In this document: in pieces, positions 241 through 40,882 of the stretch
How the letters are laid out: the number at the start of each line of letters is the position of its first letter
Numbering within the stretch: the first letter of the stretch is position 1
Origin: Ruditapes philippinarum
Lineage: Eukaryota
Length of the DNA: 64,000 nt
Assembly (NCBI RefSeq): GCF_026571515.1
Contig: NW_026865212.1
Location: forward strand, 62,001-126,000
Reading direction: 5' to 3'
Position numbers and translations under genes: made by a program
The notes under the pieces: model-generated
The model's database searches: none
Seen by the model: only the letters and a program-made list of their open reading frames with translations
What the model was told of the DNA's origin: nothing

Positions 241-3200
241 GCACGTGAGCATTTGTAAAAGGGTGTTCTGGACCCCAATGAACACTTGCTTACCCTACAG
301 GGAAAACCATCTGAGTTACCCTTTTGATCAAAGCTTTTTAATGGAAATGGGAAAACAAAAGGCAGTTACAACTGCCTAGAATGGATGTCAGGGCATTTTC
401 GAAGGTTTTGGACAAATTTATCAAGGCCTTGAGAGATTTTACTTACGCATTGTTTCTCATTAAACGGCTAAATTGCAATAACTATTTTGCTTATCATTCT
501 TGTTTCCATTGCCCTTGCAGGATCTTAATAAGTACTTGTTACATATTTGGTATTGTCTTGAGACCGATATTTTAAAAGGTTTATAATAAATTTTTATCAT
601 GTATTGCTAGCAGGTGTTCTCTATAATTTGTTGTTCGGAAACATTATTCGGAATGAAGCAAAGACACATAAGTCCATATTTTGAATATGTAAATATAACG
701 AAACTCGTGGTTTTTTGTTACAGGCTTAGTAAGGATGCAGCTTTTTTGCCTTTTTATATTGATATTATTAAGAAATAAAATATTATGCAAATATATCTTT
801 TCAGGCAAATTCTTGCAAAGTATTGTTAGCATGTCAAAAGCTAAAAAAGTTCTTGAAATTGGTATGTTTACCGGATATGCTGCTTTGGCATGCGCAGAAG
901 TACTTCCGGAGGACGGCACCGTAACAACATTAGAATTTGATCCCTTTTTAGAGGATGTGGCAAAAGAATTCTTTTCAAAATCCCCACATGTAAAGAAAAT
1001 CAATATAAGAATTGGTAAGTTACAGTTAATAAAACCAAAATAAAAATTGTGAAATACGGATTTATTGGTAATTATTTCGACATAAGGTTTAGATCATATA
1101 AGATAAAATCTATTTAATTTCTTTTTTGAAATCATGATAACCTGGTTGACCAAGCTGACTATGATTATATTGTTTTCGGGCATCTCCCTGTCCGTCCAAA
1201 TTTGATCCAACCGTGTTGCTCTACCAAAACTTAATATTAGAAAATATGATGAATATTACAGTTATTACTTTATTTGTTTTTAGGAGAGATACAGCTGACA
1301 AAAAAATAAATCTTACTTGATCACATTAAAGAATTACCCTTTATTTTATGTTTCATTATAGGGACTTTGTTGCCGAGAAAGCACGTTTTCTCATTTCTAA
1401 TCCCGTATTTTTTCTTCCGAATTATGAACACGACAGTGATACGGTGAAACTCACCGTTTCGAAGCCATTCTTCCCGCACAGAAAATAACATAATCTCACA
1501 AAAATCTGAAAATTCTTTAACCTGGCTTGTTCCACTTGTCAGACTATTAACAGACTAAAGCAACTCGAGCGCGCAGTTTCTTGTTTAGTTTTGATGTTTT
1601 CATTGCATAACCTCCTGAAAAATCCATTTCTTCTTAATTTAGATAAGTTGTACATGTCTATAAACATATATTGTATGTTTTATGCAATAAAATCCTAAGA
1701 CTTTATGTTTGCTTCCGAAAGTTAAAGCTCATTAAGACACGCTTTCTCGCTTACCAGAAAAACCTTCTCGATCCCGACATTAACCATGTATTTTCTATTT
1801 TCAAGATGTTTTTTTCTACATGTTTGCTTCCAAAAGATCTGTCTTTTTCAAGATGATTTTTCTACATATAACATTGACTCAAACGTTTCAGGTGATGCCA
1901 AGGACACTTTGCTAAAGCTTGCTGAAGAACAGGCTCAATACGATATTGTCTTTATAGACGCTAATAAAGCCGGCTACGTTGATTATTTCAAGGTAATCTG
2001 AACTATATTTTGATTAATTGGCAAATTAACGATGCACCGATAGTAATAGAAAAAACACACCCTCCTCTGTGCTGGATTCGAGTTGCACTACGCCGACATA
2101 CACTAAAAGACTTTTTTGACGCAACACTTGTTCTTTTTAGTGTATTTTGGTTTTTAAAGAATGGTTATTGGTGAAATTAAGAGTATAGATATATGAACAC
2201 CTCATACATGTATTGTAAATAAATTATGGTAGTCAATGAATGAAAAGGTATAAAATTTAACAGAAATAAAACATGAGAAACAGATAATAAATCGCAAAAT
2301 TCACAACACACAACGATGTGAAATGATTGTTTTATGACAGCTCTTATCTCAGGATAAGTAAAACATAATATAAATCAATTATATCGAATATGTCCTCCTG
2401 AGCTTGTATAAAACCTAAATACACCTCTGTCTCATGGATATTACATAATTCCTCAGAAATCTCTGTGGAATGTTCCTCCATTCCTGCACCAGGTTCAGCT
2501 ATGGTAGGTTCCAGGGTTGTACCGTCCGCCTGCGCACACGCCTTTTCAACTCATCCCACAGGTGTTCAATAACATTCAAATCTGGAGACTTGGACGGCCA
2601 GGGTAGCTGCTGAATGTTTTGCTGTTGTAGTAGGTCCCGGGTGACATGTGCTGTGTGAGCCGGTGCACTGTCGTGCATAATTATCATACCCCGTCCACCA
2701 GCTAGAAGATGAGGAATAGTGACATGAATAAGAACGTCCTGTTGATATTTACAGCTGTCAGATTTACTCGAATGATGATCGAGTCGGTCTTGGTATGTAG
2801 GGACACACCAGCCCAAACCATTACGGAACCACCGCCATACCGGTCACTTTGAATGATGCAGGCGTCGTTCAACCGTTCCCGTTGCCTTCGGTAAACTCGA
2901 ACCCGACCGTCACTATGAACAAATTAAAGCGGCTTTCATCCGTTAAGAGGACTTTTGCCTACTCTGCATGCGTCATACGCTGATGCCGGCGAGCCCGCTG
3001 TACCCTCTGTTGACGATAAAGTGCAGTAAGGACAAGGCCACTTTATGGTCGTCTCGTTCAAATGTTCTGGTCGCGAATATGCCTGATAACGGTCTTGCTA
3101 CTAATGCGTCTGCGATGCGTAACAACAATTTCTGTTTATGCAGTCGATTCGGTGGTCTTAAATCGGTTTTGAAGATGAGTTACAATAATCTGGGCATCTT

Positions 3201-5452
3201 GTACAGGTGCTGTGACCCTTCCACGAGGCTTAGCCGCCGATCGTCCTCAACTTGGACGGTGCGTTGGTACTTCAACAGAAATCTGGCTATGAGAGACACA
3301 TTTATGGCAAAAACTCGCGCCACATGAAAATATACAAACAAGAGTGATATTTTTTTATCCAATTATAGGAAAGTACATATTATGAGCAAATTATTTGTCT
3401 TATCACAAATATCATAAATAAAACATTGTTAACTTGGAACTATTAGTATTTAAAAATTTAATATAAGACAAACTTACCTGTTTCGCTGAATGATCTGCTT
3501 GAAGCATGACGATTGCGCGTGTGTGCTATTGTAATTAAATGCGAATCATTTTACGTTTTACAGGATGTCTATGATTTTTTCAATTATGCCTACTCAATAC
3601 TATAATTATATTGAAATAAAATCGAAAATGTTTGCCAAAATCGATTCCCTCGTGCAAAAAGTTGATTTTAAACCTACAGAACGTGCGAAACCGATTATCC
3701 GTCCTGGATGAATGATTTCGTTGAAAGTATTTGCAAAAAGTAGTAAAACCGGTTCTGGTAAAATATAAGTAATATATTATCAATAATTAATAAGTCAATA
3801 GTATAATTGAACTGTTTTTGTGAATAACGAATTTAAAAAGTGTTGCGTTAGAAAAGTCTTTCAGTGTATGGCACTGCATCTAATTGAACGGTTTACATGT
3901 TAGCATAACTTGTTTTCGGGTCATGACATGCATCGCAAACTGAAGTTTTTCACATGTTTGTGTTTTCATTAGTTTATGGCTATCTGTAAAGAAAATTGGT
4001 CATTATTTTTGCCATTCATTTAGAGTTTTCGAGAATGTATGTCTATATTTTTGAATATATTATATGGAGAGAAATATTTTTCTGTACGCAACATCTACAT
4101 TTCCTTTGGGATATTTACTCAAATTTCAGGGAATGACTGTAACCAAATGCCATGGCGCATACTTAGTTATTACTGCCTATTTTAGAATAGCTTACTATGC
4201 AGTTAGATTATCTAACTATACAATTCAAAAATCCACACTAAGCAATGTGTTTTCTCTATTTGTATATCTGTACTATTATTTTTTGAATTTTGACAAAGTT
4301 TGTTTGTGCGCTACATCTTGTTGTTTGATAATAATTATGTTTGTCAAGGGATTTATAAAAGATTTGTGATGATTTATATCTAAATTGATCCGCCCGGTTT
4401 ACACATTTCCTCAATGGTGTCCATTTCTAGCCAGTTCAGTACTTGTTCGTTTGGATTACTTATTCTTTAAATTATCTGAATAGTTGTAAATATAGTTAAA
4501 CAATGTTTCATCTAAAAAGTTTTCTTTAAACGATATATCACAAGTTATAAATTTCACTGAGTATGTTCAAAGCTAGTTTTGTTTTGTTTCCAACAAATCG
4601 AGTCTGCAATTTTATTTCAATTTTTGTTGTGAATTATACGTTTGAATAATGCTTCTAGGGACATTTGTCAGGATTTCTGTATAAAAGATATTATGTAGTT
4701 AGATAGAAATGAATATATAATATTTATGCAATGCTTTTTTGTACATGCATATGTCTTTTTATTCTTTTATTTATTATGATATTGTTTTAGTTGTTTGTAA
4801 CATTGTAAAAAAATGAATTGTGCGTCTTCATTTTTCTTTCCTCTTCCACATGGAGAGTAGACTGTGATGCGCAAAGATCTTCTTGCTAAAGGGGGAACGA
4901 TAGTGTTTGACAATTCCCTCATGGCTGGCCATGCTTATAACCCTGAATCAACCAATAAAATCGGACTTGAAATAAGAAAGTGCAATGAATATTTGAAATC
5001 CAGGGACGATATATTCCGAGTAAGTAAAACAGTCAATTTGGTTTATACAAAATTTATTTTAGTTTGATTATGTAGGAAGCTTGTAGCTTATAGGCACATT
5101 ATCAAATCCGTGTGTGAAACCAACTAGTACTGAGCAACGACTGTAAAGTTTCTTGCGCTGCTATTTGACAGTAGATGGCATCCTTTATTCTCCAGTTAAC
5201 CTTTACTGACTTGGATATGTTTAAAGCCTTTGGAATCGAAGAAACCAGTCATACCGAGCCTACAACATTATTGTGTCAACTTGCTTGACATTTTTCTCTA
5301 TTTTAAAATTTCCTAAAGTAATGATGTATCTTGATATATTTAACTTGTTCTTTCAAGGATACACTATCCCTTGTATTATATATTTCCAGGTACTTGTGCC
5401 AATCAGAGATGGTGTTATGATCGTGAGACGAAAAACAGATGTGTTTTTGTAA
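241..5452 (+). CDS. O-methyltransferase copy 1 (OMT1), Methyltransf_3 / CCoAOMT-MdmC family, MysB-like; 5'-partial, spliced
   Basis: Clean GT-AG exons 805-1014, 1892-1992, 4861-5019 and 5390-5452 (TAA) join in frame, giving [37 protein letters not shown]...[10 protein letters not shown]...IVFDN...VLVPIRDG. These contain the SAM-binding motif and the DAxK and DN metal-binding motifs. An indel-riddled equivalent of the preceding exon lies at ~241-404, and the first coding exon is outside the window. AATAAA at 5543-5548. Confidence 0.88.
2101..3866 (-). mobile_element. Tc1/mariner DNA transposon with frameshifted DD34E-type transposase, in an intron of OMT1
   Basis: 29-bp TIRs (CACTAAAAGACTTTTTTGACGCAACACTT versus the reverse complement at 3838-3866, 3 mismatches). 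TA duplications at 2099-2100 and 3867-3868. Minus-strand ORF 2499-2816 has HDSAPAH...[22 protein letters not shown]. Confidence 0.93.
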
Positions 5453-5712
5453 CGCTCGTTCAGTTATAAGAAACAAGAGAATACCGTTGTCACATAAAAT
5501 GACAACCGTATACTAGTAAACTAGTTGTATAAAACGTTGCCCAATAAATATTTACATAATTACAAAGACGATTTTGTTATTTTTTACATTTTGGTTAAGA
5601 CATTTTGTCCTATTCTTTTTTTTCTGAATAAGTAATATGTAGTAATATGCAATTGAAGTATGAAAAATAAAAATTAAATTAGATTTATTATGTATAACGT
5701 TATATACTTTAA

Positions 5713-6051
5713 AGTTGCACGCCTCCAGATGAGCAAAAATATGTCGATAAAATCAAACCTGTGAAAAATGTAGTACTAAGATTTTAGGAAAGGAATAAAG
5801 ATTTAAAATTCTAGTAAAAATTGACATGTTTTATGCGATTAATGACCGAATTTTTTAGTATTTATATCTATATTTCTACTGCGTTACTAACGCAGTAAGG
5901 GCTATTTTTGCATATTTTGACCTCTTTATAGTAACTTACATAGGTTGTAAGTGGCATTGATAATGTGTAAATTGCATTCTTTTGGTAACTTTACAATATT
6001 ATACTGTTAAAAGTTTCATGAAAATCAGCATGAATCTGGAGGTGTGCTGCT
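5713..6051. mobile_element. MITE with TTAA target duplication (Kolobok-like)
   Basis: 18-bp TIR AGTTGCACGCCTCCAGAT / ATCTGGAGGTGTGCTGCT, flanked by TTAA on both sides, AG...CT termini. Confidence 0.75.
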
Positions 6052-6587
6052 TTAAACTATCAAAAAGGTCTGTGCAAAGATTTTATGCTTAAAGGAAGAT
6101 TGGAGGTTGCATCTTAAATGCTGGATTCAATACAAAAGTTCTGGTCCTTGTGCACGTCAATCTTAGAATAAGACAACGTGTCTACAGGGACTAAAGTGGA
6201 AAAAAAGACATTAAACATTTTTTTTTATAATTTTCCTATTTTAACGTTTCATATCCTTTAGATAATTATACAATGTTCAGTTAGAAATACTTGAACCACC
6301 AAAGTTGAAAAAGGTCAAATATTATAAACTGAAATACCACAAACATGTATACATAACAATAATGGCGTGCTGAACGATTTTCAAAATGCTACCCTATATG
6401 GGAATCAATTATTAGTTATTAGTTATTTAAGTCAGAACTTCAAAATTCAATAAAGGTGAGTGAACATTTCATATATAAATTTTCTTGTAAATCATTTTGA
6501 TTTATAACGTGAAAAAACAATTTATCATAATATTGCTTCCATTTCAAGTCGAGCATTTAACTAAAACATTCAGGTAAAATGGATGAA

Positions 6588-7090
6588 CCCTCGGAAGCAA
6601 TGAAAAATAAAATTACATGAAAACTGAAGACTAGGTTTGATTGAGTCTGTACATTTGGGATAATGGAAGTGTGCAACATACATGCTAAAATCACGCATTC
6701 TGACGACAACGCTTAGCCAGAAAAACCTCAAATCAGCATCAGCGACCAATTTCAAAAATCAATTCAAGATTTAAAAAAAAGCATAACTGTCCACAATGAT
6801 AAACGCTATGAAAAAAGCATATCAGCATATTTCTCATATGATAACTGATACATCGAAAACAATATGTATACCTTAGACACTCTTTGTTCCACGTTCTATT
6901 TATCATGCCAGGAGAGTGTTATTAATAGATATAACTGTTTGAACGGGATTGATCCCTCGGAAGCAATGAAAACAAAGTGATATGAAAATTGCAGACTTGG
7001 TTTGATTTGGTCTGTTTATGAGAGATAATTTTTGAAAGTGCAACGTCTCTCACAGCTCCTAGCACCGTCGTAAGGGGTATTCAATATTCA
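6588..7090. repeat. Dispersed repeat family R (two adjacent relic copies)
   Basis: Motif CC[CT]TCGGAAGCA...GACT[ACT]GGTTTGATT at 6588 and 6951. Related copies at 1-52, 9390-9530, 14386-14790, 18658-18780, 24396-24535, 25075-25250 and 29405-29500. Confidence 0.65.
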
Positions 7091-7626
7091 ACACTACCTT
7101 GCTGGAATAAATGATCCTGAAGGCCCGGGAAAATATTACAACACAGAAGTTAAATAAGGGGAAGATGTTTACGGCTTTCACATGAAACTTGACACCTGCT
7201 GTTTTTAACTAAACAAATATTGAAAGGAAGCAAGGATATGACGTACCATATGGTAAGTTATGACGTACAAGTAAACTTGTCTTTTTGTAATGATAACAGT
7301 CCCTGTAACATGCATATTTAAAGACCAGGTTTGTAATTTTATTTCAAAATTCATCGTCCAGTTAGTTTAATAGGTAGAGCGTTGGGCGAATAGTTTCCTT
7401 GCAAAGCTGCTTGAAGAAGTGAATGAAATGTTCTCTTGTAAATTCAGTGTGGCTTTCTGTCGTGATCCTGAGCTGAGTGATAACAGCCAACACCACCATT
7501 ATTTTATTTCACATGACTTGATTTTCAAACGGTAATATCTGACTAAAACGTTTGGTTTGATGGACAATAAAGTCCAAACTAATCGATCTAATCCTGTATG
7601 GAATTCTTAACATCAGTATAAATAGT

Positions 7627-7661
7627 CATCATCATCATCATCATCAACATCATCATCATCA
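7627..7661. repeat. (CAT)n microsatellite
   Basis: About 11 CAT units with one interruption. Confidence 0.9.
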
Positions 7662-7939
7662 CAATTGTTTACAACTTCGCCCAAATGACATTGCTGAGTT
7701 CCCGTTATTAGAAATATATTTGAGCAGTTTTAATACATAAAACAAATACATGCAAGGAGAAAATTAGAAAAAAATTTAATACGGAGTTATTACTATCTTG
7801 TCGTGCAATCATTTGAATTGTTTAATAATTATATTTCAAACTAAATTGAACTATCTCTAATACTGTTGGAGTTATTCGCTAGATAAGAAAATATAGAATA
7901 TGTTAAGCTCTGGCCTCTTTCTGGTTTGCGCATGACAGG

Positions 7940-8615
7940 TTAATATTTTTGTAAAGCTATTACAAAATCACTTGATGGATGAAAAGGTTATGGACCGTAC
8001 GCGAAATATTCCTTCTATGAAACAATGCTTATCTTTGGTCTTGACCTTGCAGATATTGATCTGGGTGTTGCACATGACACAATGTTTTAATATAGTGAAT
8101 ATTGTCTTATTAAATCAAGTAATAGAAAAATAGGTTATGACCCTGACACGACAAGCACACACCACCAAACAATTTTGGGATTTGATCTCCAAGTTCGACA
8201 CTGACCTTTGGCCTCTGAATGTTGCGCTTGAAACGTCGTCATAATAAGGTGAACATTTGTGCCTTGCAGTTTCAAAATATCTTGATGGATAAAAAGTTAT
8301 GGACCGGGTCCGAAATATACCCCTCATCAGAAAACATTTACCTTTGATGACTTCGTGTGACCGTGTCCCTTGGAGGTACCACTTTGGGTGTTTCGCGGTA
8401 CATGTCGTCTGATTATGATATGCAGTGGTGCAAAGTTATTTCAAAATCCCTTGATGAAGTTATATGGGATGCTTTCATTGAATACCACTCTTTCCATGTT
8501 AATCTTATTTTTCGTATTTTATGACTCGAACCCGAAGTAAGAAGATCGGAAGGACAGAAAGATGGACAGGCATTGGGACGAAAGGCAACGCATACACCGG
8601 GTAGGCGAAATAACC
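7940..8615. mobile_element. Decayed Helentron/HINE-like non-autonomous element
   Basis: Repeated GATGGAT-AAAAGTTATGGACCG...GAAATAT units (7975, 8284), TGACCTT motifs and a GGAC-type microsatellite near 8550-8570. Confidence 0.5.
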
Positions 8616-13341: not shown

Positions 13342-13533
13342 TGCCTTCTTGGTACCCTGTCGTGTTGGCTGTTGGTGTGTCGGGGGTCGCGTCCTGTGAA
13401 CGTTGCCTTCTTGGTACCCTGCCGTGTTGGATGTGGGTGTGTCGGGGATTGTGCCCTGTGAACGTTGCCTTCTTAGTGCCCTGCCGTGTTGGCTGTGGGT
13501 ATGTCGGGGACTGCGTCTTGTGAACGTTGCCTT
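13342..13533. repeat. GC-rich 62-bp tandem repeat, 3 copies
   Basis: TGCCTT...GTGAACGT units start at 13342, 13404 and 13466, with a partial unit at 13528. Confidence 0.9.
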
Positions 13534-14790: not shown

Positions 14791-16160
14791 GTTTTTTGTT
14801 TTTGTTATAAATATTTTTTCTTGTTGTTTTTTTTGTTTGTTTTTTAATGGTTTTGTTTTTTTAATGTTTTTTTTTTCTTATAGAGAAAGTAATTTTGCAC
14901 TAGAGAGGAGGGAAATCAAGCTCAAGAAGGAACGATATAATTATATTGGATATGTGGCGGAACATTTGCAGGCTACTGTCCTCAAAAACAGGGTGAGAAC
15001 AATCAGCAGGAGGAGGAACCGTTAAAAACTACCACATTATCACACCACTTTAATATGGAAAAGTCACAAATGGTCAATTCATTTTTAGGCCGCCATTAAA
15101 ATTATGAATTTTACAAACATCTTAAAATATTCTCTAGATTCTAGAACATAAGATCTTCTCCAAAAATATTTTTCTTATGCATTTGTCTGATATTGTTGGA
15201 CAAGGGACATTCGACTATGAAATGGAATACATCCTCCAGAGTGTTACAAAGTTTACAAATTCATTGTTCAAATAATATTTTATGTGCTGTATGCCATCTA
15301 TGTACTTCTACTTAAAGATAATGTGATGATACTCTCAGTCTCGTTAATGCTTTTCTAAATTGTGTAATTTTTATAATGTATGAATATGGCAGCCTGATAT
15401 CTAAAATATGAAAATAGTTCATATGTCCTGGCTCTTGTCGTATTTTCTAACTGAACGTTCCAAAGTTGTAATCATTATAATCATACAGTCTTTGCTTATA
15501 TACATCAATAAACATTTTTTTGATTCCAGTTCTTTGAAATAGCCACACATGAAACCTAAGTAGTTAAACAAAGGTTCAACTCCTTGCTCGCTATTGCCTC
15601 GTGCGTTACGCTAAAAGAACCACTCGTGAATGTATATACTAAAGATTTTTAACAATGTCTACAACATGACCGTTAAATGTAAAATTCATATTTCTTTCTT
15701 TTTTTGCATTCTTCTCTAAAATCAATAAAATGTAAATTAGTTTTTCTTTAAATGTTAGCTATTAGTTTCCATTTCATACAATAATCAAATAACAAATCCA
15801 AACCTTTTAGTAAACTTGTTTCTGTTTAAGCAAAAACACAATATCATCAGCATAAAGCAAAAGGAACTGTTTAAACATATCTTTAGCTTTACACCATCAA
15901 ATCCATACAATGAGAGCCTTGTATGGCTGAAGTAATTGCTGAAGTAATTGTTAAGATGCTCCTGAAGTCGTATATTTTGTTGTTTTTTTCCAGATGACTT
16001 ATATTCTTTAAGATTTAACTAATACATGACAGTTTTCAAAATATCTCATCATAAAATGTGTGATCTTTATAATTACATACTGTACAATTTGTTTAGGCAT
16101 TATTTGATTGCTCATTCCCAGTTGTTCTCAAATTCCATCTATAGTCATTGTGTAGCTTCA

Positions 16161-16380
16161 TACGCGCCATTTGTGTAACTCAATACGCGCCATTTGTGTA
16201 ACTCAATACGCGCCATTTGTGTAACGCAATACTCGCCATTTGTGTAACTCAATGCGCGCCATCTGTGTGACTCAATACGCGCCATTTGTGTAACTCAATA
16301 CGCGCCATTTGTGTAACTCAATACGCGTCATTTGAGTAGTTCCATAAGCGCCTTTTGTGTATATCAATACGCGCCATTTG
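16161..16380. repeat. 23-bp minisatellite, ~9.5 copies
   Basis: Head-to-tail TACGCGCCATTTGTGTAACTCAA units with no spacers. Confidence 0.95.
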
Positions 16381-18982
16381 GCACATCACTCACAAAACTT
16401 TCAACTACATGATGTATGATGAAGTACATTTGAAAAACACAAATATTGATATATAATAAAATAAAATTTGATACGCTTTATCACGAGGACATTAAGATTA
16501 AGCTGTGCATTTCATCATGTAAACTTTTTCCCGGCGATGAGACAATAACTTTAATTATTTATTCGATTTATGTTTTGAAGGGAAATGGTGAAAGACATCC
16601 GTGATCCTGCCATTGTAGAGATGTATAAAATAAAAGAACTGTGTGCTGCGAAAGGGGTAGACGAGGAAATTCAAAAGCGACTTGGTAGTGCTATAACTCT
16701 TGCAGAGGCTAGTTGTCCTTTTTAATATTCCTTTCATAAAGTTGTTAATTTGTGAGAAATCGACAACTTAACAAAGATATATGTAATATCGATACGATTT
16801 TTGTTTTTTTGTTTTATAAAAGCTTGACTTTTAAGTATTTACTCGTGTCGTGATTATTATTATCATTATATCAATGTAGATTTCCTTCAATGTGTTATTT
16901 AAGACGTATACGAAAAGAGAGCAATCTTTTCCCAATTGCACTTAAAATGTTATTTGCTTTTATCATTTTGTATGTATAAGTTAAATGATTTGATTCAACG
17001 AATTCTTCTTTTACGAACTTCAGAAAATGTCTTTCAAGACATTGAACATTCGTTGCATATTATAACGATGTTGTCACTATTTCAGGCACGTGATGCATAT
17101 TGTGAAAGTGTCAGTTCTGGACCAAGTGATGCACTTGCTACCCTACATAAAGGCACGCTTAGTTACCCCTTCGATCAAGCTTTTGAGGATGGGAAAACAA
17201 AATGGCCATTGAGTCCTGTAATGCTATCTGGGCATTTGGAAGGTTTGATGTTTCCTTATGGTCAAGGCCAAGGTCACAAATGTATTCGTAAAGTAATGAT
17301 TTGATTTTTTTCATAAAAGTGCAATGATGGTTGTGTCCGGTCTTTAATTCTGTAATTCTACATATTGATGATGCGACGCGCATAGAGGTAAGGTCCCCAG
17401 TCTCCACAATTGTATGTCAATCTTGAAGGTTGTAAATATTTTCTTCTTTTGTACACATCTTTATCGATCATGGATGGACTTTGAAAAGATTATGTATAAA
17501 TTTGCTGCTCATTAAGATGATATGAAATCAATAAAATTTATATCAGCATCCCAAGCGTAAATTTCATACAATAATGTCAAAAGCCATTGATAGCCAGTCA
17601 TGTCCAGTCCATGTCGTTATATAATTAAGTGACATATTTTTTAATATACTAGTTTAAAAATATGGTTCTTTACAACAATTTTCTGATGGGTATATAGCTT
17701 AAGATCAAGGCCTTGCACGTTCATTTAATGAAAGATCGAAGTTTATATGCATTCAATATTTTTGTCAACCATGAATGGATTTTTATAAACTAGGCATTGT
17801 TTTGTGGCACATTTGGAAAAATATCTTACACACAAGCGCCAGATTGACAGTTTAAAAGGTTAAAATTATATTTGAATAACAAAAGAGGACATTGATGGTT
17901 GTGTCTGCTCATATTTTTGCCATTTATTCATATACTTTTTGAAATAAATGGGCTCACTGAAAATATGAGAAAAATATTTGTTAATGTTTCTATATTCTTG
18001 TAACACTTTTTAAGTAACCATGTCTTTGATGCAAGTCAAAGTTTATGTTCCCTCTACTGGGAATTGCTTCCAACATAAGTTCGTTTATAGAATGAATATT
18101 GTTAAGGAATACACGTTTAGAGCGAAACAAATATATCTTTTTAGGCAAATTCTTGCAAAGTATTGTTAGCATGTCAAAAGCGAAAAAAGTTCTCGAAGTT
18201 GGTACGTTTACCGGATATGCAGCTTTGGCATGCGCAGAAGTACTTCCAGAGGACGGCACCGTAACAACATTAGAATATGATCCATTTTTAGAAGATATGA
18301 TAAAAGAATTTTTCTCGAAATCACCACATGGAAATAAAATCACTGTCAGAATTGGTAAGTTAAAAGTGTGTTATATAAAACAAAAGAAAATTGGAAACAT
18401 TAAGGGAAAAGCGATCTTATTCTTAATAATTTCTAAATAAGCACTTCCTGATCCTAAAGGGATGCTAAGGCAAAGTAATGACAAAAATATTAAAATGAAA
18501 TATGTACAGAAATCACGATTAAAATGACATTTTTTAAAGTCCAAGCATGAATTTCTGTTTAAATTCTACATACGTGTATCAGGTGTATCTATTGTTCTCC
18601 TAAATAAGGAAATCGACAAAAACACATTGTTCGATAAAAAAGATCTAGAGAAAAGGTGATACTTCGGAAGCATGAATAACCAAAAGAAATCACATGAAAA
18701 TTGCAGACGACTCGGTTTGATTAAGTCTGCACGTGAGAAATAATGAAATCTGCAACGTCATGCACGTCCCTTACGGTGCTAACTTTTCATCGTTTATATT
18801 GCTGAAATAATGAAATCAGTTTACAAGCACAGAAAAATTACCATATTAAAACATCTTTAATAAAAACTGGAGAGGTGACACAAGATGTATCAACTTAAAC
18901 GTTGATTATAATTATGTGTCAATATAAGTCTCAAAAAGAATCCACCTGGCTTGTCCTACGACCACCCGTCTCTTTATGATAT

Positions 18983-19175
18983 GAGCCGCGCCATGACAAA
19001 ACCAACATAATGGGTTTGCGACCAGCATGGATCCAGACCAGGCTGCGCATCCGCGAAGTCTGATCAGGATCCATGCTGTTTGCTATCAGTTTCTCTTCTT
19101 GTTATAGAGTTTGTAAGCGAACAGCATGGATCCTGATCAGACTGCGCGGATGTTGGATTTGTCGTGACGCGGCTC
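18983..19175. mobile_element. MITE with GAG...CTC termini and ATAT target duplication (Sola-like)
   Basis: TIR GAGCCGCGCCATGACAAAACCAACA / TGTTGGATTTGTCGTGACGCGGCTC. Internal inverted repeat CTGATCAGGATCCATGCTGTT / AACAGCATGGATCCTGATCAG. ATAT on both sides. Confidence 0.85.
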
Positions 19176-19642
19176 ATATGTTGTCTTGCATATCTTAAGA
19201 TTTCAACATTTATAATATTCGCTTGGAACATTCGAAAATTGCATCAGTTATTCCGGTATTACTCTATAAGAATCTGCTTATTGCTGAAACACCCATTTTT
19301 TCAAACAACGTACAAAGAAAGTGAGATCTGGTTTCCGCTTTAATATTGCTGCATGATTTTCATTTTTAATAAAATAATTGATTTTATGAAGCTAAATCAT
19401 CGATTATAATTTTTTTTTTAATTTAATCACTTTCTACTTAATGTAAGTAGTATATAAAAAAAAAAGTTCAAATTTTATTTGCAAATCGGCAAATCCTTGC
19501 CTTTGGCAATACATACAAAACATATACATACATAGATCTTGAAATATAGCACACATAACTACAAGATACATATATAAACATTTCAAATATCAGTATTCGT
19601 TTTGAAATTAACAAATAACAAAGTAGTGTTAATAATATATCA

Positions 19643-22600
19643 TTAATTTCGTCTATTTATCATTTGTTCCATGTTATTAGATCGTAAATCAAAAGCTTTG
19701 TCCAAGTACTTACTTATCAGTAATAATCTATGTTTATTATTAGATGACATGATATAATAAAACTTATTCAGTGTGGGAAAAGATGCATTACGAATAAAAA
19801 GTTTTCTTAATTCTGAATAAAATGGACAACAAAGCAGGAAGTGATATTCGGATTCTATCATGTTTTGAGTACAAAGTTTACATATTCTCTCACTTCTGTT
19901 TAAACCTATATATCTGCCAGTTTTTCAATTTCTAGAGAATGGGAACCAAGTCTGAAACATGTCAAACGTTTTCTTAACTTGTCATTTTGTATTACATTTA
20001 GATATTCCTCAAAACAAAAATTTGATTTTGAAATTCCTAAAATAAAGAGTTTTTGGCATGTTATTTATTTGCTCATGCCAATTTTGTATAAATTGATCTC
20101 TAAGGCGTTGTTTAAAAAATTAAGCTAAAATCAGAAATAACATTATAGTTATCTAACAAATATGAAAATCCTAACTCATTAATAATAGTATGAGCTTGCC
20201 TAGCCCAGCATTTATTATTTCCATTAACACATTGATCTAAATACATGCTATATATAGGCGAATGCTGATTATTAACAATTTTATTCCAAAACTTTAAAGA
20301 TCTTTCTTTACATAAAATTGACAAAGGAAATTTACCAAGTTCTCCATAGACAGCACAATTAGGAGTTTGTTTTTTAACACCAAGTACATATTTATAAAAT
20401 TTTATTTGCAGTTTATCAATATCTTTATATTTGTAAATTCCCCATACATCTGAACCATATAACAGAATTGGAGTTATCAGACTATCAAAAAAGGTGCAGT
20501 TTAGTTTTTACATCTAGCTTTATTCTGTCAAAAATACCCAATAGACTGTTATATGCTCTAAGGCCTTGCTCTGCAAGAGTCTTAGTTGCTTCAGAAAAGC
20601 TACCCGTATAAGAAAATTTTACACCTAAATATGAAAAATTATTCAACAATATCTACAAATTGACCATCAATGTTTATACTAAAATTATGTACAGATTTCC
20701 TTCTTTCAAAAACACAAACTTTAGTTTTATTAACATTTATTTTAAGCCCCCATTTTGACGAATAACTATATACATTATCAACTTGAGCTTGCAAGCTCTC
20801 TGGACTTGTAGTGAAAAGCACGATATCGTCTGCAAAAAGTAGCAAATATTTAGACAAGAGTTCAAGGTCGCTATTCGACATTTTGTTAAGATCTATACAT
20901 TTTTCAATATCATTTAAAAAAAGAATAAATAGCAGGGGAGATAATGGCTCGCCTTGCTTTAATCCAAGAGTTACGTCGAAAAAATCTGACATACTCATAA
21001 AAGCATTAATTTTTACACATGACACTACAGACGAATAAATTGCCTTAACATATTTATCATTTTACAACTAATACCAGTATCTAACAGCTTAATCCATAAC
21101 GCATCTCTTATAACTGTGTCAAAGGCCTTTTCATAATCAATGAAAATACAATAGAGTTTAGAATTTTTTGCTAAAACTTTTCTGAATTATGGAATGAAGA
21201 ATAAAAATAGCATCAGAGGTTGATCTCGAATCTCTAAAACCAAACTGAATATCGCTGAAAATTCTTTCTGACTCACACCATTTATTAATTCTATTGCGCA
21301 ATATCAACGAAAAAAATTTTGGCCATACAATTTACCAAAGTTATGCCCCCTGTAGTTCGAGGGATTATCATGATCACCTTTCTTATGTATTGGGACAATT
21401 ATCCCCTTACACCATGAATCGGGATAAACACCTGTTTCAAATATTTTATTAAAGATAACACACAGATATTTACTTATAAAATAATTAGCATCAATGAAAA
21501 AATCCGCCACTATATTTTGATAATCCGCACTTTTATTTCTATTCAACGATGAAATTGTTTTAGAGATCTCATCTATTGTTATTTGGGTATCTAGCTGCTC
21601 GACGTGTACAGGTGAATCACGTGACTGTGAAAAATCGTCTGCATTTAAAGCGGCTGTGTTGCGTATTGCAAATACGCGAAAAATGATCAACAAAAGCATT
21701 TAAATTTTGACAATTATTGGCTTTCGATTTACTTTTATACTTATTTATATATTTCCAAAATTTCCGGGGAGACGTTTTACACATATCTGAAAGATTTGAT
21801 TTCTCCTTAGAATAATATAAATATTTTGCATGTCTCTTAACCCTTGCATACTTAGTTCTGCTTGTCAAAAATAACAACATATTTTCATTAGAACTGTTCA
21901 AAGCAAAATTTCGTTTTTTGTTTAGAAAATCTGATTTAGCATTTCTGCATTCATGATTAAACCATGGCGATTTTCTATTATTTTTTTGCTTATTTTTATG
22001 AAATGTTTTACCATGACATTTATAAGATATATCATAAATCGTTTGAGATAAAGTGTTTATACAATAGTCAATATCATTTTCACCTGACATTAGTTTATCA
22101 CATATATTTTCAAACACATGTCTATTTTCTTCCAGCAAGTTGCAAAAATTATTATTATTTTCAGTATTCCATACAATTTTATTTATTGGTGGTACCTGTA
22201 TATTTTTGCTATTACTTTGACTATAACTTAATGAAAATGAAATAGGACAGTGATCTGAAAATTCTGTCATATCCATAACACATACATCGTTCAAAGAGGA
22301 AAAATTTTCGAAATCCGTTAAAAGATAGTCCACTGTACTCATAACAGCTCTGTTTCTAAATTTCGAATGAAAAGTACAAAAACCTGGTTCTAAGCGCCCA
22401 TTAGCTATGATAATTTTATTTTCTTTGCACAAAGTTAATAATTTGTAACCAAAAGAATTAACGTGTGTATCGTTGTTTGATCGCTTCGGAATATCCTGGA
22501 TCTCGTCGGTCGGAAGCGCAGTGAAACGATCTAAGTGAATGTTCTCTACATGGTCCAGCCTCTCACCCGTTCGAGCGTTGAAATCGCCCATGCAGAAGAC

Positions 22601-23058
22601 TTGACCAAGGTCACTATATTTACGAATATCCTCATTTAATTGCTCAAAAAAGTCAAACTCGAAAAGTTTGGAATTTACATCTTTATAAACATTTGAATCC
22701 TCAGGTGGAATGTAACATGTACCTAAGTAAATATCTGTTTCACATCCAAAATGCTCTTTTTTTAATTTAATCCAAACGATACCTTTTAAGTTTATATTCA
22801 CAATCTCAAGCTTATTTACCAAACTATCTTTATAATAAATAACAATCCCTCCACTACTACGTTTCGCTTTTGACTTACTGTTAGGTCTAGGACCATGTAC
22901 ATAATCAAAACCATTAATTTTTAAATTTGTAAGTTTTGAAGTCCATGTCTCTGTTAACAGCACAATATCATATGAAGAGATGAGATTTAAAAAGTCAATA
23001 TCATTCAACTTAGACTTTAACCCATTAATATTCCAAGATAATATATTTAAGTATTCCC
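19643..23058 (-). pseudogene. LINE ORF2 (APE endonuclease plus reverse transcriptase), frameshifted
   Basis: ORF pieces 21617-23008 (LTETW, GDFNAR, VDY, SDH), 21304-21699 (IVPIHKKG...NYRG), 20639-21025 (GLKQGEPLSPLLF, LFADD), 20112-20324 and 19643-19861. Confidence 0.9.
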
Positions 23059-23068
23059 ATTTTATTTC

Positions 23069-23511
23069 CTATTTAGTAATGTTGCGGGCAGAATTCTGTT
23101 GCTGGGCACCTGGAATTGTAGGCAAATTTTCTATTTCTTGTATTGGGAGAGAGTCTACCGTGTACATTTTATTATTGACGAAAAGTTTGTCCATATGTAG
23201 ACTTGCTCGTAACCCAGCATCACGCGCTTTCTTCAGAGACGGGTAGAGTAGTCTCCGTCGCTGCTGGACCGGAACCGGAAACTGATCGCTCACACTATGA
23301 TTTATTGATCCTTTCTTGTCTAGTACTCTCTGTTTTATTTCAAGCTTGTCTTTATGATAGTTAAATTTCACAACAATTGGACGTTTTTTGTTGGCCATAA
23401 ATTTTCCGACTCTATGCGCTCTGTCTATTTTCAAGGTGTTGTGTGCGTCTGCAAAACCTAGTGCATCAGTACAAAAATCTAAAATTTTCTTTTCACAGTT
23501 CTCTCCCTTTC
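23069..23511 (-). pseudogene. LINE ORF1 C-terminal part (L1-ORF1-like RRM/CTD)
   Basis: KIDRAHRVGK...RPIVVKF...SDQFP...RRRLL...DKLFVNNKMY. The N-terminal residues of the ORF-track call come from flanking DNA. Confidence 0.8.
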
Positions 23512-24395
23512 TATATAATATATATAATAATCTATGTGCTGTAATAATGTAATAATTGAGAATAAATAATGACAACACCAGGAAACAGAAATACTTATTC
23601 CTTTAAATTACTGATTGATCCAAATTGGCTGTCACCTAAACATAATTATCAAACTTTTCTGTTATAGAAGTGATACTTTAAAACCCGCCATTAAACGACA
23701 GAAACGTGACATGTAAATAATTATTACCAATCATTGCTTTAATTGATTAACATACAGCAATAGCTCTAAAATACATGAGGATAATTCAATCTTGTAATTT
23801 ACATTTAAGAATGTCAAATATGAAGTTGACTTTAGTGGTTTACAGTCACCTATCATAACAAATCGAACCTCAACACAAAATGTTGATTATGACTGCCTTA
23901 ATATATAACAAAATAACTCACCACTGTGCACTACTGTCCACTACAACAGCAACATCACCAAAATGTAACCGAATATCAATAATTTTACATACTGTGACTG
24001 TCAGTAGAAGAGGTTATATCAAACATGTGTCAAGATATTGAAGATATAAAGTGATCTTTTACATTTCGTAAATATAAGAGTCTCATACCTCAATTATCTA
24101 GAATTAGATCTTACTGCTTCTAGCTCATAAAAGATCTTACAATTGATTTATATAAATAGACGAAGCAACATCCAACCGACGATGAAGTTCAGAGTAAAAA
24201 ATGATGCTAACGTACTTCAATCTCTCCTATTTCACAGGAGAAAATGAAGGGTTTAAAACTCTAGGTCCCCTCCTCCCCCTTTTGGCACTTCGCATAAATT
24301 TCATCGTACCGTCAAATTCTATTTATAACCTTAACATATTTTTTGTTTCTGTTAGACATGGTGAACGAAATTGATCAAATCTGGAAACTCAATGT

Positions 24396-25250
24396 GATCC
24401 TTCGGAGGCATTAACCACAACAAAATTACAAAAGAATTGCGGACTCTCTTTGTCTATACATGAGGGATAATGAATAAATGCAACATCACTCACGCCCCTT
24501 AGCACCGGCTTGAGCGGTACTCAATTCTCAACAGCCGACATGTAGAAAAAGTTCTACATAAAAACAAAACACAATTTAAAATGTGTCTCTCTTACGATAC
24601 AGAATTAAAAAAAACAACTTTAATATCATTTTATATTTTAAATAAAATTGCAAATGTATCACCAAAAGTGACACAATATTTATTTTAAATACACAACTGT
24701 CCCTTTATATCGTTGAAATTACTCAAATTCAAAATGCCGGACGAAACACGCCCAAATATTCAATGTTAGCAGCTAGAAAACATAAGCTCCAACGATCAGT
24801 TTGATTACAATTCGCTCCTCCTCAATAACCTACTAAAAACCAACCAATAAAAACTACTTCAACTGGTCAAAGTCTTTTCGATATTATTTTAGTTATTTTG
24901 AATAAATACAAGTCTATGTATTAATTAAAGTAACCTAACTGTTCATTTATCGTACACTCATTACAAAAAATATGCTATCAACAGTAGATCAGAACATATC
25001 TTTGTACAATTATCACATCGGTAACAAATAGAAAAACATTAAAAAAAAATGGAAAAAAAAACAAACAAACAAGCCCCTAAAGAACGCCCCAAACGACAAA
25101 TTGAAAATATTCCTGGCTCTGTTTTATTGAGCCTGTTCATGGACGGTACTGGAAAGTGCAAGATACAGTCCATGCCCCCTAGCACATGCTTAAGCAGAAT
25201 TCAACATTTAAAAATGAAAAACTGTAAAATCTTCAATTTAAAAACATTCA
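24396..25250. repeat. Dispersed repeat family R (5' and 3' cores)
   Basis: GATCCTTCGGAGGCA...GCCCCTTAGCACCGGCTT at 24396-24510, and TTGAGCCTGTTCATGGACGGT...GCCCCCTAGCACATGCTTAAGCAG at 25127-25198. Confidence 0.6.
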
Positions 25251-27139
25251 ATTTGAAACGAATACAACCAGACGTAACGGTGTCTCAAGCAATGAAAAAT
25301 TTGAACTATCACACATTGACAGACTCAATCATACCTGAGTGTGAAATTTACGTGTAATTTGGTTGCTTTAATTTCTTCCAAGGCATCTCCCTTGTTCCAG
25401 ATTTTTCCACAAAATAACCTTGCCCTTAATCGTTTCAGGTGATGCGAAGGACACTTTGCTAGAGCTTGCAGAAGAAAAGGCTTAATACGATATTGTCTTT
25501 ATAGACGCTAATAAAGATGGATACATCGACTATTTCAAGGTAATCTTAACAATATTTGAAATGACCAAAACATCTTTACAAGAAAAATCCCGCCCTTTGT
25601 TTTTTTTTATTTTGTGTAAGAGAAATAGCCTTCTGTTCACAAGGATTATGACCATATCTGAAGTTAATAACCTATCCTTTGGCTTTGTCTTTGTTAAAAA
25701 ATATCTTGACAAAGTTTGTATGAGAGCTACATCTAGTTGTTTATTAATCATGAATTTGTCAAGTGATTTAGCAACGATTTGTAAAGGATTATGTCTTCAT
25801 TGATGCGCCCGCTTTGTTCATATCCTTAATTGTAACCTTTCATGCCCGCCCATAACGTGTTTGTTTAGGGTATTTTCAAATCTGAGTAATTTAACAAACT
25901 TGTTTTCTTTTAATACCTGAAAAGTTGCAATAAGTTTGAATATTGTTTCACATGTAAACATTTTGTTAAAATGATAACTTACATGTAATAAATATCGCTG
26001 AAATTGTAGCTAAAAGATAAAAATAAACTGTCTCTGTAAAATAGTTGTCAATTAGTGCGATATGCAATTAAAAAGGTTTTAAAGCTTTTAAGTATATACT
26101 TGAACAAAGCTTCTTATTAAGGCCTCATAAGTAATATCGTTTGGTTGTTTTTCGTAGTGTTATATACTTTATCCTTTGCTTGTCTTTGTACATGCCTTTT
26201 TTATTCTAACATGTTAAATGAAAGTTGACAAACCCTATTTCGATAGCAGACAACTTTCAGTCGTTTATAATTAATTTATACAGCCATGCGCTTGAGTTTT
26301 GTTTCGATGTTTATTTTTCATTATAATGATGTTGTTCCTTTTTTATGATAGTATCAATTTTATCTGCATTTTTTATCTTCCACATGGGAGAGTAGACCGT
26401 GATGAGCAAAGACCTTCTTGTCAAAGGAGGAACGATAGTGTTCGACAATGCATTTATGGGTGGTCATGCATATAATCCCGAATCAACAAATGAACATGGA
26501 CTTGCAATAAGACAGTGCAATGAATATTTGAAATCCAGGGACGATATATTCCGAGTAAGTAAAACAATTAATTCTATGAAGAAGTCTGCTTCTTTTGCTA
26601 CGTTACAGTTATCTTTGAAACTATTTATAGTTATACTATTATATTTTAACCTATGTGGCTGTTACAATTTTCATCAACTTGCTCGTAACACTAACATAGC
26701 AAATATATTCGCCGTTTTCTAATTAGAAAACATATTTAAAATTCTGAAAAAAAATCCTGGAGAGCCCGAAATGAGATTGTTGTCACAAGCAGTCTTGGCT
26801 TCTCTCTATGTTCGGTTTCTATAATTTCCTATTATGTATTATTAAAATAATCACCCCAACTTTTTTTATGCACAAAATATGGGAAACGAGAAACTTAAAG
26901 TTGCTGAAAGGCCATTTTAGACAAAAAAGCTAAAATATTTAAAAATTCTATCCTCTGCTTTTTCACAAACAAATCGATTCCGTTTATTTTCTCCCCAGTT
27001 TGTTAATCTCTACTGGGTTGAAATGTGATTAATGTTTATGTGGCTTTTTTGGTTTGTTTGTTTTTGGGACTCAAAGGCATCATTAACCAAAACCTGCAAA
27101 TAATTTTGTCCCACCCCGTAATCGTTACATTTGATTAGA

Positions 27140-27995
27140 ATTCAAGTATTCCCGGTAACCAATTGGGGACTGAATATTTTACTTCGAAATATCGATGGTT
27201 TCGATAATCGAAATCGGAATTATGGATAGACGAAAACTCTCCACTTTTGACCCAATCAGCTCAGTCTCCCAGACTACACGTGTTCTAAAACCTTGGTGTA
27301 GACCGTGCCTCTGTGTGAGTTCGTGAGGGAAAAATAGATATTTAAAGAAAAATGCCCGTAAAACTTATTTTATGACATTGAAGACAATAAATTGTGCATT
27401 TTCAATCGTAGCATCTCTCTGTTTTCTTTCGCGCCAAATGCTCTCGTTTACCAATTTTGCTCGTCCTATACGGTATTTACAGCTAAACTCTGGTATTTTC
27501 GATTAGGAAAAATTAAGGCTCTCATGTAGCGTTACAATTAATGAAAAAAATGTTTTGGATGTTTTGACAAATTCACATATACGGAATGTATAAAAAATTA
27601 ATTGCTGTCATCTTAAAACAAAATCGGACACGGTGCACGTTAATTAAAGTTGATTAAAGAACACACGAAGAGTTATTATCATGATTGTCTAATTACACGC
27701 ATGACAGTGGATATTTTTCACAAGTCGACTGGTCAGCGAGTGGATCTGCGTCAATTAGTCTGGCTTCGAATAATAATTAGGCTGGCTTCGAATAATAGGT
27801 GTGAAATTCTTTCGTAATTGTATAATCGGGACCGAAATTTTACTTCGAAAAATAGGAGGTATTCGGATAATGCATTTCGAATAATACGCTCGTATTTATA
27901 TTGTTTTATATAGAGATAAAAACGGGACCAGCGATCTACTTCGGATAATGCCGGGTATTCGAATAAAGGGTTGTCGAATAACCGGGGTCGGACTG
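27140..27995. mobile_element. Truncated pogo/Tigger-like MITE
   Basis: Right end TCGAATAACCGGGGTCGGACTG followed by TA, with many TTCGAATAA subterminal repeats. Left TIR not recognisable. Confidence 0.55.
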
Positions 27996-30473
27996 TAGAT
28001 GAAGATGTATTTTAATAAATGTATTCTTTAACCTTTACGTTAACGGTAATGACATCTCATTAAAGTTGTTCAACTATTTAAATGTCGAGAACGTTTACCA
28101 CTTTATTCCTCTGAGTGACTCTTATATTCGTATATATGTTTCCAGGTACTTGTGCCAATAAGAGATGGTGTCGTTATTGTAAGACGAAAAACAGATGTGT
28201 TTTTGTAAAGATCGTTCAAATAAAAAACAAATGCACACACCGCTTTCATATATCTGAACCAATAAATATCTACTATGGCACTATCAATTGTTTTAGCAGC
28301 AGCTTATGGTTTATCCTTGTCAAAAAATGATTGTTCAGCTTAAAAATGATGTAAAGCTGTATACATCACTGTCTATCAAAAATTCTCGGTTGAATGTACA
28401 TGTATGCATTTTATAGCCAATGATGATGGATATGAAAACTGTACTTATTCGGAACACTGTACAATGTACATATACATCTAAGTTAACTATATATATACAC
28501 ACTAGTTTGTACACGACATAAATAAAGATATTGTGGTGGAGATCTTTGTTTATTTGTTGTTTTTTATGATTATTCATTTGTCGAAATGGTAATGTAATTG
28601 AAGTATGAAAAACAGAAAGTGCAGTAGGTATTTCATGTATAATTTTACATACTTATAAGCAATCCGATAAAGGGCTGACTCGTAGACAAGGGTATATGGC
28701 CATTGTATAATAGACATAGTTGCATCTGTATGTTTGGATGCAATACAAAACTTGTGACCCCAATACACTTAAATTTTAAAAAAAAACAAAATACCACAGG
28801 GAAAAAATTTTTTAAAAATCGCATATCTATTGTTTTTACCAATTACATCTCAATTTAAAACTAAATACTGCAAAGATACGGGTTTTTAAAAACATATTTT
28901 TTGCCAAATTAATACTGTAAAATTTTTCATCTTTATAAATTTTAAAGGGGAAATCTTTATGGAAAAGGGTTACTGTCCATTGAATTCCCTGAAAAGGGGT
29001 TTTGAATACAGCATCTGGGTATTTTAAAATTCAAATAAACATTTTTATCTTTAATGACATTTGTCAAATTCATCAAGTTGACTGAACTGAATAATATTTC
29101 AAAAGATTGATGTTAAAAAAGGTAATTTACAACAGTTCTATTGAAAATTTTAGGATCTCCCGAAAAATAAAAAGACGCCCCGCTCTTTTTATGAAATGAA
29201 TGTTACAGGTAAATTCTAATGGATATTTACAAAAAAAATTCATATGAATCCATGCGTTGTTTATTGTTAATGTGAAATATTTTTTTATATGAAAAGGAAT
29301 TATGGCAAAATGTAAACTTATTTTGACATTCACTTGTGCACTCATTTATACCCTTGGATGGGCATAGTATCACTTTTAATGTAGTATATTGCTTAATGTT
29401 TAATACTGCTTAAGCCGGTGCTAAGGGGCGTGGACGGTCCCTTGCTCAATCAAAATGCAACATTTTCAATTTTGCCGTTTTGGACTTTCTATTGGGATTT
29501 TATTTGTTTCTATTTTAGGACAATACTTTTAAAAAGAAATGTTCAATAATTTTCAAGTCATTAATTTTAAAAATACCATACCTGGTTGATGTATTTGTAC
29601 TATTCTGTTCGAGGTTCTTACCCTTAGTTTGTCGTTAATTGCCCAAATTAATTCAATTGAGCGATTGATATGAATGGCCCTCTTTTAACAGAGACCAAAG
29701 GTTACAACTAGGGCAAAAAGTGCGGTCAACGATTATTATAGGTTTAAGTTCAAACATTTCTTTATTACCTTGTACTTATACAGATTTCAGGAAGTTCATT
29801 TGGACCACAGTACTGATGAAACATGGTAGTGATCATAGGAAGGAAGACGATTGTTACGTAACTTTTTGCGCCTTATTTCTAACAAAACCTGGCATTTGTT
29901 ATGACAGGGGTCAATGTCATTGAAAGAGGAAAATTTTGAAGGCAATAAATCGTGTTCTAATGTCGTCGTTTTTCCTTGTCCAACAAAAACGAAATCTATA
30001 CGCGTTAAAATATAGCTGGATATCTCATTTATGTATGTCAATTCAAAAACATAAATAAATAAAAACTTGTATTAAGTAACCTTTCCTTTCGTAAGCTTTG
30101 TTTTAGCGTTCTATGAAAAATATTTTAACTATCATTTCTATAAAACATATGTATCACTATATATATATTTGTTTAATTTATTTCCAACAAGCATGAATTA
30201 TGTAGCCATTATATTAACTAAACACAGCAAAATATTTAACATGACAATTAATTGTGAGGAATGGGCCACAAAATACCATCAAGAAGCTTTTTCGGAACCA
30301 CTTCACGCTTAAGTTAACTGGTTTTTCGAGTGCAAACTTAAAGTTTTGCAAGAAAATAATATTAACTTTTCCGACATAAATGTGCTTTATCCTATTCATT
30401 TGTGTTAATGGAGTTTTTGAAAACAAAGTATACGGTAATTTTATTAATAATTCTTTATATTCATTTCACATAT

Positions 30474-40819: not shown

Positions 40820-40882
40820 AGTGCACTGACCTATAACTTAACATATGTTTGTGAACTTCGTAATATTTTAGTTTAATTGTTC

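Follow-up and report, generated by a model that had tools for sequence, protein, structure and literature searches.

The O-methyltransferases closest to the genes described here are MysB, of the cyanobacterial mycosporine pathway, and proteins resembling MT-Ox, of the vertebrate gadusol pathway. In the available portions of reviews, the four-gene pathway is placed in cnidarians, algae, fungi and bacteria, and the pair of EEVS and MT-Ox in egg-laying vertebrates. MT-Ox is described as a two-domain protein, Methyltransf_3 plus SDR (accessible parts of PMC4426668 and PMC7826186), and a fusion of cyclase and methyltransferase is known from dinoflagellates (available sections of PMC6001144 and PMC3083659). 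We analyzed a stretch of 64,000 nucleotides from the clam Ruditapes philippinarum (assembly GCF_026571515.1, contig NW_026865212.1, positions 62,001 to 126,000), hereafter the window. It carries on the plus strand two tandem intron-containing O-methyltransferase genes of family PF01596 (Methyltransf_3), copies A and B, neither with an open full-length frame in the window. Sequence comparisons argue firmly that the mollusc genes belong to the long-N-terminus MysB/MT-Ox group. As to function, we lean modestly toward a cytosolic enzyme, an orphan of the gadusol-type pathway in which its relatives take part, that would act on catechol- or diol-type small molecules.

The mollusc genes group with MysB and MT-Ox

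Most comparisons used P0319, an open 270-amino acid (aa) protein from a 966-base contig, the second member of the cluster of the R. philippinarum protein P0001. Over 176 residues P0319 shows three differences from copy A, and it scores 161 bits against PF01596, where the cut-off is 22, so that the match is not due to chance. It matches methyltransferase families only, and both gene copies stop after codon 270, with no SDR half. No NCBIfam family exceeded its cut-off for five queries, and none of the PDB sequence matches bears the name MysB.

The highest non-mollusc scores come from an MT-Ox-type protein and MysB. Against P0319, the fish protein P0154 of Channa striata, which combines Methyltransf_3 with SDR and came seventh of 150 in a profile search, reaches 223 bits, the best of 75 MysB 212, and the best of 46 short generic enzymes 157; with the core domain alone, the values are 180 for MysB, 173 for the group of P0154 and 152 for the short enzymes. 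MysB and the fish protein together span 182-223 bits, against about 70 for human COMTD1 (2avd), which gives 71 bits against P0003 and for P0319 does not appear in a list ending at 68 bits. The roughly threefold difference between the MysB and COMTD1 scores upholds the earlier view that the clam features are unlike COMTD1, as a comparison of scores, COMTD1 being outside the trees. With a relative from Mercenaria as query, the best named non-mollusc match among the best 120 of 1404 proteins is P0056 from Okeania (41% identity, 198 bits). Among 80 genome loci around P0056-type genes, a MysA-like gene is present at 78 and a MysC-like gene at 77, with both together at 75; the methyltransferases of these 75 loci are MysB by context because they are flanked by both. 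The label MT-Ox-type is used here for the combination of Methyltransf_3 and SDR domains, without a comparison with zebrafish MT-Ox itself. Such fusions are also found in Vitrella (P0163), Pycnococcus (P0199) and a chytrid (P0207), beyond the two algae given in the available text of PMC4426668.

Phylogenetic trees agree with the scores. FastTree analysis of 225 rows recovers a 55-row mollusc clade (support 96) within a long-form clade of 153 rows (99). A quick tree with 63 rows gives the same clades (97 and 97), yet places 2 of 11 outgroup rows inside, beside an ostracod sequence. The careful tree has 37 rows, after removal of 26 long-branched or redundant ones that included the two stray outgroup rows; in it, molluscs (98/97), cyanobacterial MysB (99/92) and a eukaryote clade of MT-Ox and fungal sequences (96/91) all lie in one group (98/89). 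The best 37-row tree joins molluscs to the eukaryote clade (77/79). By the approximately unbiased (AU) test, this set rejects molluscs with cyanobacterial MysB (p 0.020) and molluscs with fish (p 0.032), and does not reject molluscs as sister to all other long forms (p 0.22). A second set of 32 rows, which includes a sea cucumber and the ostracod, supports the long-form group (100/99) and the molluscs (91/87) and rejects neither a union of all animal rows (p 0.21) nor one of molluscs with cyanobacterial MysB (p 0.28). The trees were built without COMTD1, CCoAOMT and true MdmC sequences, and in none of the four are molluscs nested in cyanobacterial MysB.

The first-pass annotation had proposed kinship with MysB through an ancient acquisition. 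The kinship stands at the level of the group, in that the mollusc genes cluster with long-N-terminus forms against short generic enzymes, but not as a specifically cyanobacterial one. The gene is old, but a cyanobacterial source is not shown, the fish protein scoring as high as MysB and the sister group varying with the taxon set; we rejected a specific cyanobacterial donor as unproven, given the two AU results on sisterhood with MysB. Descent from an ancient eukaryote gene that was lost many times is no less possible than a transfer, and the long-form clades could have branched in more than one order.

The mollusc proteins can be set beside each described type. With cyanobacterial MysB (Ava_3857 type) they share a PF01596 core, a length of about 270-280 aa, 40-45% identity over nearly the whole length and the same catalytic residues; they differ in forming a separate clade, and the clam genes have no mysA or mysC neighbors, lack residues Q219, E86 and G42, and are split into six coding exons. 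The methyltransferase half of MT-Ox-type proteins (P0154, P0163, P0199, P0207) includes the top non-mollusc score (P0154), has the same N-terminal hairpin and insert and is also an animal gene, but the mollusc proteins have no SDR half and do not keep K219. Cyclase-methyltransferase fusions (P0198, P0212, P0209) belong to the same long-form group, but score only 126-148 bits, carry a DHQ-synthase-type domain and keep K219. COMTD1 (2avd), CCoAOMT (1sui, 5kva), Synechocystis 3cbg and the MdmC-like short bacterial enzymes have the same fold (Z 26-28), metal site and Lys-Asn-Asp, but score 71-106 bits, in alignments that start near residue 65-95.

On these trees and scores, mollusc proteins that databases label MdmC-like or caffeoyl-CoA O-methyltransferase are a branch of the MysB/MT-Ox group. 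We found no report of this kinship in the literature searched, which covered few subscription papers; the trees of PMC6001144 and PMC7826186 may include molluscs. The kinship is thus apparently unremarked, but it is not evidence that clams make sunscreens.

Fold, catalytic residues and predicted localization

The P0319 model (predicted local distance difference test score, pLDDT, 96) has helices at 8-23, 27-50, 56-67 and 70-75 ahead of the core, and the MysB model has four matching helices at 15-32, 37-59, 66-77 and 80-85. The MysB-like N-terminal helical extension noted earlier is therefore found in both models, as a hairpin plus an insert. Alignment columns of hairpin and insert are occupied in 92% and 96% of molluscs and in 18% and 14% of the 46 short enzymes, and the mollusc proteins have the aromatic residue 70 in the insert, which we used as a test feature of the long-N-terminus group. 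Against catechol, caffeoyl-CoA and related enzymes the P0319 model gives Z 26-29 (5log: Z 28.8, root-mean-square deviation 2.9, 218 aligned). We rejected a subfamily assignment by fold, since COMTD1, CCoAOMT and bacterial enzymes all lie within 3 Z units.

The catalytic residues are retained. In the 45 mollusc-clade rows, that is, named molluscs or rows placed there by the 225-row tree, D186, D214 and N215 are each conserved in 45/45, D257 in 43/45 and K189 in 39/45, and all five are present in the translations of both clam copies. N188 replaces the usual Asp in 21 of these rows. By motif spacing, D186, K189, D214, N215 and D257 correspond to D177, K180, D203, N204 and D252 of sorghum CCoAOMT, whose metal and acceptor residues are given in the available text of PMC6153501. 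The family uses a divalent ion to hold vicinal hydroxyls (accessible part of PMC6543040).

In 13 mollusc proteins the maximum 19-residue hydropathy is 1.0-1.5, and no signal or membrane segment is seen by hydropathy. The mollusc enzyme is thus likely to be cation-dependent and cytosolic, as judged from these residues and profiles. This localization bears on the idea that the enzyme provides mollusc glycans with their O-methylated sugars. Glycan methylation is generally placed in the Golgi, whereas the 13 proteins show no signal or membrane segment, which counts against that role. The relatives do act on sugar-derived cyclitols, the family is mollusc-wide, and snail glycans contain 3-O-methyl mannose and 3- or 4-O-methyl galactose (available text of PMC6272458); the same source has nematodes methylating glycans too, yet no nematode is among the named matches. 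We consider a glycan role very unlikely.

Exon layout and integrity of the two copies

Joining exons by coordinates gives GT-AG introns throughout, except for one GC-AG. Copy B has six coding exons between 16585 and 28208 (813 nucleotides, or 270 codons and a stop), separated by the GC-AG intron and four GT-AG ones; copy A shows four clean exons from 805 to 5452 and a garbled one at about 241-404, and the exon with which its coding sequence starts falls outside the window. The features are as follows.

241..404, plus strand: copy A second coding exon, with many 1-2 base indels; 78% nucleotide match to copy B exon 17086-17242
805..1014, plus strand: copy A exon with S-adenosylmethionine (SAM)-binding motif ([14 protein letters not shown]); from motif match and exon joining
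1892..1992, plus strand: copy A exon encoding D186 (by homology a metal ligand) and K189 (by homology the catalytic lysine); codon 179 is CAA
4861..5019, plus strand: copy A exon encoding D214-N215 together with the variable positions 218-219
5390..5452, plus strand: final coding exon of copy A, containing VLVPIRDG with D257, and the stop
16585..16707, plus strand: copy B first coding exon (helical hairpin), with the GC donor at its end
16708..17085, plus strand: copy B GC-AG intron, 378 bases; from exon joining and a contig joint that skips 378 bases
17086..17242, plus strand: second coding exon of copy B, with MLSGHLEG and the insert helix 66-80; 42% to residues 49-115 of MysB P0056
18145..18354, plus strand: copy B exon with SAM-binding motif and SPHGNKI
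25439..25539, plus strand: copy B exon in which an in-frame TAA (25483-25485) precedes D186 and K189
26396..26554, plus strand: copy B exon encoding D214-N215; spanned in run X9 by a contig piece of 97% similarity
28146..28208, plus strand: copy B last coding exon and stop

Copy B has a further, non-coding exon upstream: a contig piece matching 16580-16705 carries 109 upstream letters located elsewhere. The exon structure of the two copies confirms the earlier description of a fully intronized, duplicated gene. The motifs quoted in that description are all found, on the plus strand and in two copies, but the N-terminal motifs and SPHGNKI are in copy B only (copy A has SPHVKKI in the window). 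Its spliced protein of about 270 aa agrees with the length of copy B, but it mentioned neither the TAA at codon 179 of copy B nor the frameless exon of copy A.

The TAA of copy B is in frame where copy A has CAA, and a stop there would cost the protein D186, K189, D214, N215 and D257. Copy A exon 241-404 has no open frame; its best frameshift-tolerant fit is P0319 (41 of 52 residues, with 14 frameshifted codons), followed by copy B (34 of 52). Because the four downstream exons are free of indels and the best fit is to the intact P0319, the garbled exon is probably a local assembly error. The 176 residues of the four clean exons lie letter for letter inside P0001, whose label, O-methyltransferase MdmC-like, is an automatic NCBI name. 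Copies A and B are identical at 152 of the 176 residues of their common part, and the ratio of nonsynonymous to synonymous substitution rates (dN/dS) between them is 0.17. In this animal, copy A is likely the working gene, and copy B would be either a null allele of recent origin or an error in the sequence.

No sequencing run with a match to the locus is on record as RNA, and the runs that we treat as RNA are so by guess. A joint that skips the 378 bases of the GC-AG intron is found in contigs of runs X9 and X10; among the matches listed, which repeats dominate, run contigs support 1 of the 5 joints of copy B. Copy-B-like contig pieces in run X9 cover parts of exons 1, 2, 3 and 5; among the matches listed for the four runs compared with copy B, none falls on 25483, the site of the TAA. 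Raw RNA depth on exons is about 0-2 in runs X22 and X24, with 4-6% of each run read. Together with the TAA and the garbled exon, this low depth could suggest that both copies in this animal are dead relics without present function. The open P0319 allele largely refutes this for copy A, and the low dN/dS, the spliced copy-B-like contigs in two runs and four full-length paralogues in Mercenaria also speak against it; we regard dead relics as highly improbable.

Several repeats lie in and around the two genes. A minus-strand retroelement of the long interspersed nuclear element (LINE) type, with frameshifted endonuclease and reverse transcriptase pieces, occupies 19643-23602 inside the 7-kb third intron of copy B, and a short inverted-repeat element at 18980-19180, also in a copy B intron, has very deep RNA coverage drawn from other genomic copies. 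A DDE transposase fragment lies at 2499-3327 inside a copy A intron, and tandem repeats are found at 13342-13533 and 16148-16380.

Distribution across molluscs

A profile built from 27 relatives gave 150 further representatives, of which 29, plus P0001, could be named by cluster look-up. The named molluscs comprise 22 genera of four classes: 11 bivalve genera (including Solemya and two freshwater mussels), 9 gastropod genera (including Lottia, Gigantopelta, Aplysia, Lymnaea and Bradybaena), Octopus and the chiton Liolophura. Mercenaria has the four full-length paralogues mentioned above. Divergent long-form members occur in a sea cucumber (P0244) and an ostracod (P0211), both on long branches; P0211 sits inside a mis-joined RNA polymerase gene model. 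The gene family is not clam-specific, nor is it tied to filter feeding, the setting named by the first-pass annotation: it is also in octopus, chiton, limpet, and land and freshwater snails. The locus itself is ordinary for a mollusc. We take the carriers to include a vent snail, a land snail and freshwater mussels, and some of these lineages presumably receive little or no ultraviolet (UV) light.

Motifs and putative substrate-pocket positions

Motifs that had been put forward as typical of MysB are not diagnostic. The exact MLSGHxEG is present in 75/75 MysB and in copy B, but in 0/45 other mollusc-clade rows (the copy A allele has MMSGHFEG), while SPHGxKI occurs in 12 of the 46 short generic enzymes and LE[IV]GMFTGY in 9. 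On these counts the motif match between the clam copies and MysB is partly coincidence, and we rejected the motif-level argument for MysB.

Putative pocket positions separate the groups better, in the set of features Q/K219, E86 and G42, which was derived in this analysis and not from print. Position 219 is Q in 75/75 MysB and K in 4/4 MT-Ox-type proteins, 4/4 cyclase fusions and 10/11 other long-form rows; the 45 mollusc rows show at least six residues there (G 10, Y 8, H 6, Q 5, R 4, F 4). At position 86, E is shared by 75/75 MysB, 3/4 MT-Ox-type proteins and 3/4 cyclase fusions, and it is outside the six commonest mollusc residues. G42 of the gadusol-pathway members is lost in molluscs in like manner. 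The clam copies have G or A at 219, V or R at 86 and A42; R43 is the molluscs' own residue (42/45 rows). Position 218, which 219 adjoins, corresponds to the acceptor-side Trp207 and is variable in molluscs. Positions 219 and 86 would touch the substrate, to judge from their neighbors in plant enzymes.

Pathway partners and the gadusol-type alternative

MysA, MysC and MysD have no match in the 64-kb window (best E 0.6), where copy A lies at the edge with its upstream side out of view; the earlier statement that no mysA/C/D-type gene is present there is upheld. A search with the cyclase domain, a weak one with a single type of query, gave 1433 matches, and among the best 120 the 16 named by organism include no mollusc and one animal (Nematostella). 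Cluster look-up for the MysA protein returned only fungal and bacterial clusters in the best 5 of 30 matches, which is no evidence either way. No cyclase or SDR fusion is present among the mollusc-clade rows examined.

These results bear on a rival in which the MysB/MT-Ox chemistry is kept and the mollusc enzyme methylates a gadusol-type cyclitol enol, made by an undetected molluscan cyclase or obtained from food or microbes. The enzyme belongs to a group whose characterized members all do such chemistry (available text of PMC10666671 and PMC4426668), it has the predicted hairpin-plus-insert architecture of MysB, and its top non-mollusc scores are to the fish MT-Ox-type protein and MysB. Against this stand the loss of Q/K219, E86 and G42, the lack of a cyclase, ATP-grasp or ligase gene in the window and of a mollusc among the 16 named cyclase matches, and the retention of the family in lineages with presumably little or no UV. 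Dietary mycosporines, moreover, already bear the methyl ether. The record of the compounds cuts both ways: mycosporine-like amino acids are present in molluscs and their egg masses, where they are related to diet and phylogeny and tied to the diet of the adult (PMC3083659, available text of section 2.7.2), and the accessible part of PMC10384724 lists mycosporines for Mollusca, but not gadusol or deoxygadusol. We judge this rival rather unlikely. Its stricter form, in which molluscs possess their own branch of sunscreen-pathway methyltransferases, kept since before the split of chitons, cephalopods, snails and bivalves and still methylating a gadusol-type cyclitol, is in our estimate improbable.

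Proposed function

The orphaned cytosolic enzyme that we prefer would use SAM as methyl donor, with a divalent metal chelating two neighboring hydroxyls, in the manner of other PF01596 enzymes. It would methylate a single hydroxyl on a small molecule of catechol or vicinal-diol type, likely not demethyl-4-deoxygadusol for de novo sunscreen synthesis. The gene would already have stood alone in the ancestor of chitons, cephalopods, snails and bivalves, and repeated duplication with a variable pocket may have served different dietary or endogenous phenolics and catechols. We counted for this reading the retained metal and catalytic residues, the lost gadusol-pathway residues, the lack of a visible cyclase partner or of a cyclase or SDR fusion among the rows examined, the low hydropathy, the dN/dS of 0.17 between the copies, and the retention in the vent snail, the freshwater mussels and the land snail.

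Several points weigh against it. Because every one of the 75 MysB rows shares at least 70% identity with a single query, their conservation is inflated, and five mollusc rows keep Q219. The contact of 219 and 86 with the substrate is deduced from plant enzymes, and no structure or mechanism of MysB is in print according to the available text of PMC10666671. The molluscs retain the hairpin and insert of the MysB group, and the search behind the missing cyclase partner is the weak one described above. Lastly, only 6/45 mollusc rows retain the Trp that characterizes catechol-type short enzymes (39/46), so that a plain catechol substrate is not implied either.

The one hint at function in print is a gene labeled MdmC, possibly of this family, which rises in both RNA and protein in the foot of mussels as the byssus regrows, alongside tyrosinase-like genes (accessible part of PMC12607631). 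We considered and rejected a link to the molluscan bursatellin cluster, whose methyltransferase-like enzyme is an isonocardicin-synthase homologue (available text of PMC11869996).

If the gadusol-type alternative were true, molluscs as a phylum would be able, unrecognized so far, to produce or modify sunscreens or antioxidants that are at present attributed to diet. If molluscs have no gadusol-type chemistry, the family would be a natural case of a pathway enzyme retained without its pathway. The pocket differences of the molluscs would then point to candidate specificity residues of MysB.

Neighboring features

Decayed frames resembling a long terminal repeat (LTR) retrotransposon lie at 60700-64000, with an integrase zinc-binding match below the cut-off. 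Between them and the methyltransferase genes, the minus strand carries at 30477-56736 a tandem gene cluster whose products combine a hydrophobic leader and a repeated coiled segment with an H-type lectin domain at the C-terminus, represented by five lectin exons (30477, 34919, 38375, 43620 and 46111) and six first exons. The cluster contains a recent segmental duplication, 39532-41929 versus 49109-51444, at about 91% identity.

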